Virus record (IMG/VR): IMGVR_UViG_2695420687_000008
Source: a virus
Lineage: Duplodnaviria; Heunggongvirae; Uroviricota; Caudoviricetes
Direction: 5' to 3' (one strand)
Length of the DNA stretch: 4,340 bases
Within the stretch, counting starts at the first letter, position 1. Every line of letters begins with the position of its first letter. Made by a program: the position numbers and the translations under genes. A model generated the notes under the pieces. That model saw only the letters and a list, made by a program, of their open reading frames with translations, did no database searches and was not told the DNA's origin. Shown one piece after another: positions 1,230 through 1,582 of this stretch.

Positions 1230-1472
1230 ATGGGCAAAGAATATAAAACTCTCATTAACAAAGCACTTGAGCGTTTTTATTTTCGCTTAAGTGCATCAGG
1301 CGCTCATGCTGAACGTGCGGCCCGTGACTCATTGACCAGAGCAATCCGAAGTCTGTATGACGTGGCTTTTTACGCTGATGATCTGGATGCACTTAACGAA
1401 CTTTCCGAGCTGATCTGTGCCGCAGAGTGCGGGGAACATATTGAACCGTATAAGCTGGGGAATATCGCATGA
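1230..1472 (+). CDS. hypothetical protein, 80 aa, predicted helical (cluster gene B)
   Basis: ATG 1230 preceded by AAGGG (1217-1221) at 8-nt spacing; alternative GTG at 1227. Protein MGKEYKTLINKALERFYFRLSASGAHAERAARDSLTRAIRSLYDVAFYADDLDALNELSELICAAECGEHIEPYKLGNIA. Stop TGA 1470-1472 overlaps the next start (ATGA). No family recognised. Confidence 0.5.
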   Translation: MGKEYKTLINKALERFYFRLSASGAHAERAARDSLTRAIRSLYDVAFYADDLDALNELSELICAAECGEHIEPYKLGNIA

Positions 1473-1582
1473 GTATATTTATCTCATGGCTTGTTCTGAT
1501 TATTTCGGTGGCCTGCGCTATTGGGATTATGCGAATTATTCATTCAATAAAAAAGATTGAACTCTTTTTCACTGAAGAATAA
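1469..1582 (+). CDS. small single-pass membrane peptide, 37 aa (cluster gene C)
   Basis: ATG 1469-1471 overlaps the stop of gene B (ATGA coupling); GGGGA 7-10 nt upstream. Peptide MSIFISWLVLIISVACAIGIMRIIHSIKKIELFFTEE has one hydrophobic helix followed by a basic/acidic tail. Too short for the supplied ORF track; called from reading the sequence. Confidence 0.4.
   Translation: MSIFISWLVLIISVACAIGIMRIIHSIKKIELFFTEE

Follow-up and report, generated by a model that had tools for sequence, protein, structure and literature searches.

A DUF4754 gene and an overlapping gene for a predicted single-helix membrane peptide in the early operon of P88-like phages

Described relatives and the source of the pair

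Phage 186 carries two small genes, fil and dhr, between cII and the terminator tR1. The two genes overlap, both are non-essential, and an untranslated spacer follows them. In the annotations of 186, fil is described as 'overexpression blocks cell division' and dhr as 'inhibits host DNA replication'. Small single-pass inner-membrane regulators are also known, such as Blr of E. coli (41 aa, annotated 'beta-lactam resistance protein'), which was reported to associate with the divisome, SidA of Caulobacter, MgrB, and AcrZ; each of them has one helix with a functional membrane-embedded face. The type I toxins Ldr, Hok, and TisB have 30-50 aa, one hydrophobic helix, and a charged end, and they are stand-alone genes under antisense control.

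The pair described here, gene B and gene C, is already catalogued and uncharacterised. In phage P88, gp06 (YP_009113049.1, 'DUF4754 family protein') and gp07 (YP_009113050.1, 'membrane protein'), and in the RefSeq annotation of E. coli SE11, WP_000514277.1 ('DUF4754 family protein', B) and WP_000021668.1 ('hypothetical protein', C), are the same two genes: the DNA is 97% identical, the 4-nt overlap is shared, and so is their position in the early operon. In gene C, a few residues differ from the P88/RefSeq copy, e.g., I27, L32, and E36 compared with V, R, and G. The pair is an ordinary small phage membrane protein with its partner and represents no new type of system. Phage membrane proteins of such small size are routinely overlooked or annotated no further than 'hypothetical'. 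We found no literature on DUF4754, PF15946, these accessions, or the C peptide string, and the papers mentioning P88 appear, from their abstracts, not to concern B or C. Searches of Pfam, PHROGs, NCBIfam, PADLOC, Foldseek, and PDB profiles gave no homology of B or C to characterised proteins.

The stretch of DNA analysed, called the window, has 4,340 bases and is a patchwork of unrelated pieces, with N runs at 924-928 and around 4220-4232. Positions 930-2061 correspond to the early region of P2-family prophages, with 98.9% identity in 410 complete E. coli genome records. The phage records matching the same region were P88, P884B11 (genus Xuanwuvirus), and Citrobacter phage phiSM, with 97-99% identity. 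From 2062 on, the window is E. coli chromosome (the rdlD/ldrD region, then yhjV, then dppF), and the junction at 2061/2062 was spanned by none of the 5,426 complete E. coli genomes. The window also holds a type I toxin locus at 2160-2330 (rdlD, 86.5 bits). Compared with P88, the window copy of the pair lies in a truncated 1.1-kb fragment lacking the Pe promoter, int, the immunity (C) repressor, cox, and gpA. Only the gp05, B, C, gp08, and winged-helix portion of the early operon is present, and in this window the fragment bearing B and C can be no more than a relic or an artefact of assembly. The pair itself was observed in about 8% of complete E. coli genomes (413/5,426).

The features of the phage fragment are given below.

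931-1218, + strand: gp05-like early-operon gene (95 aa, phrog_3800, function unknown), separated from B by 11 nt; between lineages it has diverged along with B and C
1230-1472, + strand: gene B, acidic 80-aa protein of the DUF4754 family, predicted to form a helical hairpin in the cytoplasm, with ATG at 1230 and TGA at 1470-1472
1457-1472, + strand: coupling junction read from the sequence, with a Shine-Dalgarno-like GGGG at 1457-1460, 8 nt before the ATG, then the ATGA overlap at 1469-1472
1469-1582, + strand: gene C, predicted 37-aa single-pass inner-membrane peptide, MSIFISWLVLIISVACAIGIMRIIHSIKKIELFFTEE, assigned from its ORF, hydrophobicity, charges, and conservation
1583-1668, + strand: untranslated spacer of 86 nt with a conserved hairpin, TCCGC-ATTC-GCGGA, at 1628-1641, assigned from covariation and fold
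1669-1872, + strand: gp08-like early-operon gene, joined to the next gene by an ATGA overlap like that of B and C
1869 to the cut at 2061, + strand: winged-helix MarR-like gene, with an ATGA overlap to the gp08-like gene and interrupted by unrelated chromosomal DNA

Operon maps of the SE11 prophage, P88, and 12 further loci were compared. The gene order was the same in all loci examined: int, C repressor, cox, DUF4761, gp05 (sometimes), DUF4754, C, more small genes, and gpA. In the mapped loci the pair had cox/apl on one side and the replication gene A on the other, and its strand was opposite to that of int and the immunity repressor. B and C directly follow each other in the early lytic (Pe) operon of a temperate phage of the P2 family that resembles P88 (Xuanwuvirus, Peduoviridae). 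The position of fil and dhr in 186 corresponds to that of B and C, and P2 and 186 lack both B and C. Compared with C, 186 Fil (75 aa) and Dhr (66 aa) are soluble without a TM helix, and their sequences are unrelated to those of B and C. Homology to 186 Fil/Dhr or to P2 Orf78 was considered, and none was found.

Anatomy and conservation of genes B and C

Gene B matched PF15946 (DUF4754) over its full length, positions 1-80 of 80, with 181.7 bits (cut-off 27) and an E value of 2.8e-54, and matched phrog_2549 of PHROGs with an E value of 3e-38. Translation of B could also start at GTG 1227, but ATG 1230 is the start that agrees with RefSeq and with the Pfam model. The AlphaFold2 model of B, made from a 10-sequence alignment, showed helices at residues 4-48 and 52-66 (mean pLDDT 88), resulting in a helical hairpin; the earlier description of B as an 80-aa helical protein agrees with this model. 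Foldseek detected no match of the model below an E value of 0.5 in PDB and BFVD, and a PDB profile search returned designed helical repeats only. Neither a DNA-binding nor an RNase fold was seen in the model or with Foldseek. The only PADLOC match of B, at 0.012, is at chance level. The family is tiny, with 28 matches among 1.84 billion cluster representatives in a profile search. B showed a pN/pS of 0.11 (Nei-Gojobori, all distinct sequences).

At the junction, positions 1461-1480 read aatatcgcat gagtatattt (surrounding sequence: aatatcgcATGAgtatattt). ATG at 1469-1471 and TGA at 1470-1472 share the 4-nt ATGA, so C starts inside the stop codon of B, as the original prediction had stated. The prediction had further taken this overlap as a sign of coupled expression. 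Although the overlap does exist, genes of this early operon are commonly joined in this way, and the pair is not special in this respect: the P88 early operon has five consecutive 4-nt overlaps, and in the window the gene pair at 1869 shows an ATGA overlap identical to that of B and C. In all divergent loci the junction was GCATGA or GTATGA, and a stretch rich in purines lay 8-14 nt upstream. A promoter scan upstream of and within B gave one weak site, inside B, compared with 2.0 expected by chance, and a promoter inside B driving C in lysogens was rejected for this reason. The junction has a CAUGA that is able to base-pair with UCAUG in the codons for Ser6 and Trp7; TCA encodes Ser6 in 71/75 distinct sequences. 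A start-codon-sequestering hairpin of this kind was also rejected; the pairing is present, but the fold was no better than that of shuffled sequence (z = 0.04).

C was described from the start as a single hydrophobic helix with a charged tail, and its composition bears this out. The best 19-residue hydrophobic stretch covers residues 3-21, with a mean Kyte-Doolittle value of 2.68 and a summed Hessa dG of -2.9 kcal/mol. No charge was observed before this span, and R22, K28, and K29 follow it, which predicts an N-out/C-in topology by the positive-inside rule. The same charge asymmetry was present in the distant forms. C thus has the features of a small single-pass inner-membrane protein (<50 aa), namely the span, the orienting charges, and no signal-peptidase or lipobox site, and its insertion is predicted. 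Cys16 is not conserved; therefore, C is not a lipoprotein. The conserved positions 6/7, 13, 17, and 20 lie on one helix face, which suggests helix-helix packing. Against Pfam, PHROGs, NCBIfam, and PADLOC, C showed no family match; the single line returned, to SdpB, scored 13 bits and is due to chance. The sequence W-(L/I)-V-L-(I/V)-(I/V)-S-V occurs in both C and Blr, but their charge distribution differs, and homology of the two was rejected with 16.5 bits over 11 hydrophobic residues.

The tail of C was more variable. The motif I-E-x-(F/L)-F-T-G-(D/E) was observed in the two nearer subfamilies, and the tail of the third subfamily is unrelated. The tail was altered repeatedly: in the 45-aa forms the TTTTT run at 1564-1568 is shorter by one T, and forms of 30-34 aa were frequent too. 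Among these altered forms, P0170 is present on 388 contigs. It follows that the tail can be dispensed with, or else that many of the prophages are under weak selection.

For the close relatives, 135 sequences were compared, consisting of 134 loci from IMG/VR and phage records and the window. In 134 of the 135, the 80 codons of B, the ATGA junction, and the downstream ORF (>=30 aa) were intact. The lone exception is phage 503458, whose record shows several single-base indels across the two genes. Conservation of the overlap in homologous loci had been proposed as a check on the pair, and the overlap was kept in these 134 sequences and in all the distant loci. The pN/pS of C codons 1-30 was 0.26, compared with 1.54 and 0.88 in the other forward frames and 0.41-1.35 in the reverse frames (Nei-Gojobori). 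Of the distinct mutations in codons 2-30, 23 were synonymous and 23 non-synonymous, whereas the share of synonymous changes expected is 0.25-0.29 (binomial p = 2e-4 to 2e-3). This synonymous excess was absent in the +1 and +2 frames. Within the helix (residues 3-21), all replacements were hydrophobic-for-hydrophobic except one A17T.

Distant B homologues (31-44% identity) were obtained from a profile search, and their loci were then placed in IMG/VR (L135-L150). A species-representative genome scan, which used a narrower B alignment and found three loci, contributed one locus from E. albertii and one from Salmonella enterica (L153), the latter with a B of 53% identity. In every distant locus (B 31-53% identical), we observed GCATGA or GTATGA followed by an overlapping single-helix ORF of 41-50 aa; examples of these peptides are MSVFLSWMILIISVLMAIGIMRIIEALKNIESLFTGEERRK, MNWCAPVSVCFSWVVFILSIIAAIVIVRLWREISRLDKSTDTDINKH, and MNAVIPILKSWIIVGISIIAAPLIVRLLDFISTSNKQRNIKRRRKHIS. 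Among the aligned divergent forms of C, S6, W7, A17, I20, and R22 were invariant and exactly 14 residues separated W from R (S-W-x14-R), at 27% overall identity. Judged by these sequence comparisons, C is a conserved protein-coding gene, and the distant relatives are the strongest evidence for it. The 37-codon ORF, which the original prediction had allowed might prove non-coding, instead combines a low pN/pS, a synonymous excess, and deep conservation of S-W-x14-R.

The C-family members looked up (P0132 and P0170, eight places shown) each lie behind PF15946 with a 4-nt overlap. A profile search with C gave about 134 clusters; among the 120 listed, all source names were Escherichia and all were 'hypothetical'. 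B and C are an obligate pair, and C was not met without B, although their constant adjacency could be simple linkage. The only natural B-C fusion (P0057) was considered and found to be a frameshift artefact. Sequence comparison alone was enough to show the 37-codon ORF as a selected gene, locked to one partner across nearly fully diverged lineages.

Between lineages, the identities of gp05, B, and C were 48%, 43-53%, and ~27%, respectively, and those of the flanking DUF4761 and gp08 were 68-86%. Such rapid divergence of gp05, B, and C between conserved flanks fits a host-interaction cassette.

Possible roles of the pair

From the anatomy of the junction, ribosomes ending B at UGA 1470-1472 would re-initiate at the overlapping AUG 1469-1471, probably aided by the G-rich, Shine-Dalgarno-like stretch within the last codons of B. 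Because of this re-initiation, C would be made along with B upon prophage induction or phage infection. The peptide is expected to insert in the inner membrane with its N terminus periplasmic and with the Lys/Arg-rich juxtamembrane segment and short tail cytoplasmic. C would most likely act by helix-helix contacts in the membrane, with itself or with a host inner-membrane protein, since its most conserved part is one face of the TM helix (S6/W7, S/A13, A17, I20, R22, and the fixed W-x14-R). In size, and in having one helix with such a face, C resembles Blr, SidA, MgrB, and AcrZ. B, an acidic helical hairpin never found without C, is the likely cytoplasmic partner.

The pair lies after the cox switch gene and before the first spacer, in a slot that carries fil and dhr in phage 186. 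P2 and 186 lack B and C, and 186 has fil and dhr at the corresponding position; we therefore tentatively prefer to regard the pair as an accessory membrane module that is directed at the host and produced early during lytic growth. The comparison with 186 is an analogy of position, and we hold this reading with low confidence, a little below even. From its position, such a non-essential module may, for example, block division, transport, or the entry of competing DNA. If it is true that the pair targets a host membrane machine, it would provide a new handle on that machine. B-C is a clean candidate for functional testing in a well-understood phage family, and the understanding of P2-type phages is unchanged by the present result.

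A more specific version of the preferred reading is possible but doubtful. DUF4754 and the S-W-x14-R peptide might form a dedicated two-component module for host take-over, in which the C helix would inhibit a host inner-membrane machine (the divisome or a DNA-entry transporter) and the B hairpin would tune or deliver C. The fast divergence of gp05, B, and C would then stem from an arms race between the phage and either its host or rival phages.

The original prediction had named three roles for the pair, a toxin with its cognate regulator, a holin/antiholin-like disruptor, and an entry-exclusion peptide, and none of them gained support. Among these, exclusion is unlikely but survives best. 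T4 Imm, P22 SieA, and HK97 gp15 are exclusion proteins that block DNA injection, and C, as a predicted small inner-membrane protein of a temperate phage, might similarly stop injection by related phages from its place in the inner membrane. The fast divergence of gp05, B, and C between conserved flanks is as expected of specificity or arms-race genes. However, the pair follows cox in the early lytic Pe operon, which in P2 and 186 is shut off by the C repressor in lysogens. Because the early operon is repressed in the lysogen, both a classical exclusion role and a holin role are argued against. Unlike a moron, the pair has no terminator of its own and no promoter of its own above chance, and the known P2 conversion genes old, tin, and fun are located elsewhere. 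Exclusion may act during lytic growth alone.

It is improbable that B and C form a toxin-antitoxin or abortive-infection pair, with C as a membrane-depolarising toxin and B, which is translated first, as its protein antidote. The size and shape of C, one helix with a charged tail, are like those of Hok, Ldr, TisB, and GhoT, the putative antidote lies upstream with a stop/start overlap as in many type II and type V modules, and B and C were never separated in the loci examined. Against this, the pair is no autonomous cassette and occupies a single fixed position in the early operon of one phage lineage, where 4-nt overlaps are generic. The only promoter-like site, inside B, was below chance expectation, toxin and antitoxin families were unmatched in PADLOC, Pfam, and NCBIfam, and B has no DNA-binding or RNase fold. 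Type I toxins are stand-alone and antisense-controlled, whereas C is in an operon and coupled to a protein gene. An Rfam scan of the whole window detected rdlD/sok-like matches at 2165-2318 only, and no antisense RNA of a known family at 1230-1668.

C could alternatively anchor B, and thereby replication or excision complexes, to the inner membrane, in the way that p16.7 and p1 of phi29 are membrane tethers for replication. A soluble helical protein and a membrane anchor in fixed ratio, always co-inherited, would suit this role, as would an operon that ends in the replication initiator gpA. We consider a tether improbable as well, as P2 and 186 replicate without B and C, and B has no DNA-binding signature.

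Tolerance of the C tail to frameshifts and truncations raises the question whether the peptide itself has any function, or whether the ORF is retained to keep the mRNA covered by ribosomes as far as the spacer (anti-polarity) or under RNA constraints at the junction. The CAUGA/UCAUG pairing and the near-constant TCA codon of Ser6 are compatible with the latter, but the junction folds no better than shuffled sequence. Purifying selection on amino acids was observed in the C frame only. At 27% identity, too distant for the DNA itself to be aligned, the peptides still have the hydrophobic helix, the spacing of W-x14-R, and the positive-inside pattern. A functionless peptide is therefore very improbable.

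A holin/antiholin-like disruptor contributing to lysis timing is the least credible role by far: C does have one TM helix and a charged C-terminal tail, but it belongs to the early operon and not to the late lysis cassette with the endolysin, the late genes are >6 kb away, C is far smaller than known holins and has neither a dual-start motif nor a PHROG or Pfam holin match, and an early hole-former would abort infection.

The spacer after gene C

The 86-nt spacer marks the end of the B-C translational block. The spacers of 186 and P2 have T-rich terminators, which are absent in the P88-type, and the spacers are unrelated. The spacer showed a fold z of -2.0. In the hairpin at 1628-1641, 98.5% of cells were paired in 26 distinct variants, with compensation of CG to UA and with G.U wobbles.

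An RNA hairpin in the spacer after gene C

The spacer that separates gene C from gp08 (1583-1668) contains a conserved hairpin, 3' of gene C.

1628-1641: conserved hairpin TCCGC-ATTC-GCGGA

Pairing was retained in 98.5% of cells over 26 distinct variants, and the closing pair changed from CG to UA in five variants. Two G.U wobbles were compatible with a plus-strand RNA only, and the fold gave a z value of −2.0. The hairpin persisted despite a different next gene. The hairpin lacks a T-run and is therefore no classical terminator. In phage 186, of the P2 family, the early-operon terminator tR1 lies at the matching position. 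The spacer hairpin may act in processing, stability or antitermination.

The B-C overlap and the tail of C

Where the B stop and C start codons overlap, CAUGA and the UCAUG within codons Ser6-Trp7 of C are complementary (window 1468-1491) and give a stem of 5-6 bp. Among 75 distinct sequences, Ser6 was encoded by TCA in 71 and by TCG in 3. Such a stem could keep the start of C hidden before translation of B; the local fold, however, was no better than that of shuffled sequence (z = 0.04). At the other end of the gene, length changes in the TTTTT run at 1564-1568 resulted in recurrent 45-aa forms of C (...FSLTNNSTNKTPD), and the alternative frame after this run was open for 13 codons further in many prophages.

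Composition of the window

The window (1-4340) is a patchwork with joins near 270, 924-930, 2061/2062 and 4220-4232. Its pieces, in order, are:

Piece 1: tuf-like fragment, identity from ORF translation only
Piece 2: mrp/apbC fragment, minus strand, identity from ORF translation only
Piece 3: run of Ns
Piece 4: phage early operon, 1.13 kb
Piece 5: rdlD-yhjV-dppF region, chromosomal
Piece 6: second run of Ns

The phage/chromosome join at 2061/2062 was spanned in 0 of 5,426 complete E. coli genomes and is therefore probably an assembly or scaffolding artefact. In the chromosomal piece, 2160-2330 corresponds to the type I toxin-antitoxin locus rdlD/ldrD.

2216-2281, plus strand: rdlD antisense RNA (Rfam, 86.5 bits)

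On the minus strand, ldrD has its start codon at 2167, but the ORF from there reads only MTL-stop. Left of ~2160 the window showed no relation to the K-12 ldrD coding region; the toxin ORF is therefore missing or replaced.

Divergence among related loci

Compared with phage P88 (L002), the divergent IMG/VR locus L149, the Salmonella locus L153 and other loci showed identities of 48%, 43-53% and ~27% between lineages in the gp05-DUF4754-C block. The flanks were far less diverged, at 80-86% for DUF4761 and 68-82% for gp08. The block looks like an allelic cassette within a conserved frame. In one divergent sub-lineage (L137-L145), a second short ORF followed the C homologue, ~134 nt past the B stop. 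This ORF of 31-34 aa (MKNVKAI..TVWVIFQVSALIWLALKIWE) includes a hydrophobic helix and may encode another small membrane protein; the window lacks it. A B-C locus of the E. coli type (L151) was also observed on a Gram-positive assembly contig (NZ_JBQPOM010000071.1, 'Vagococcus sp. WN89Y'). Its B protein was 98% identical to that of the window, and the locus is most likely a contamination of this assembly.
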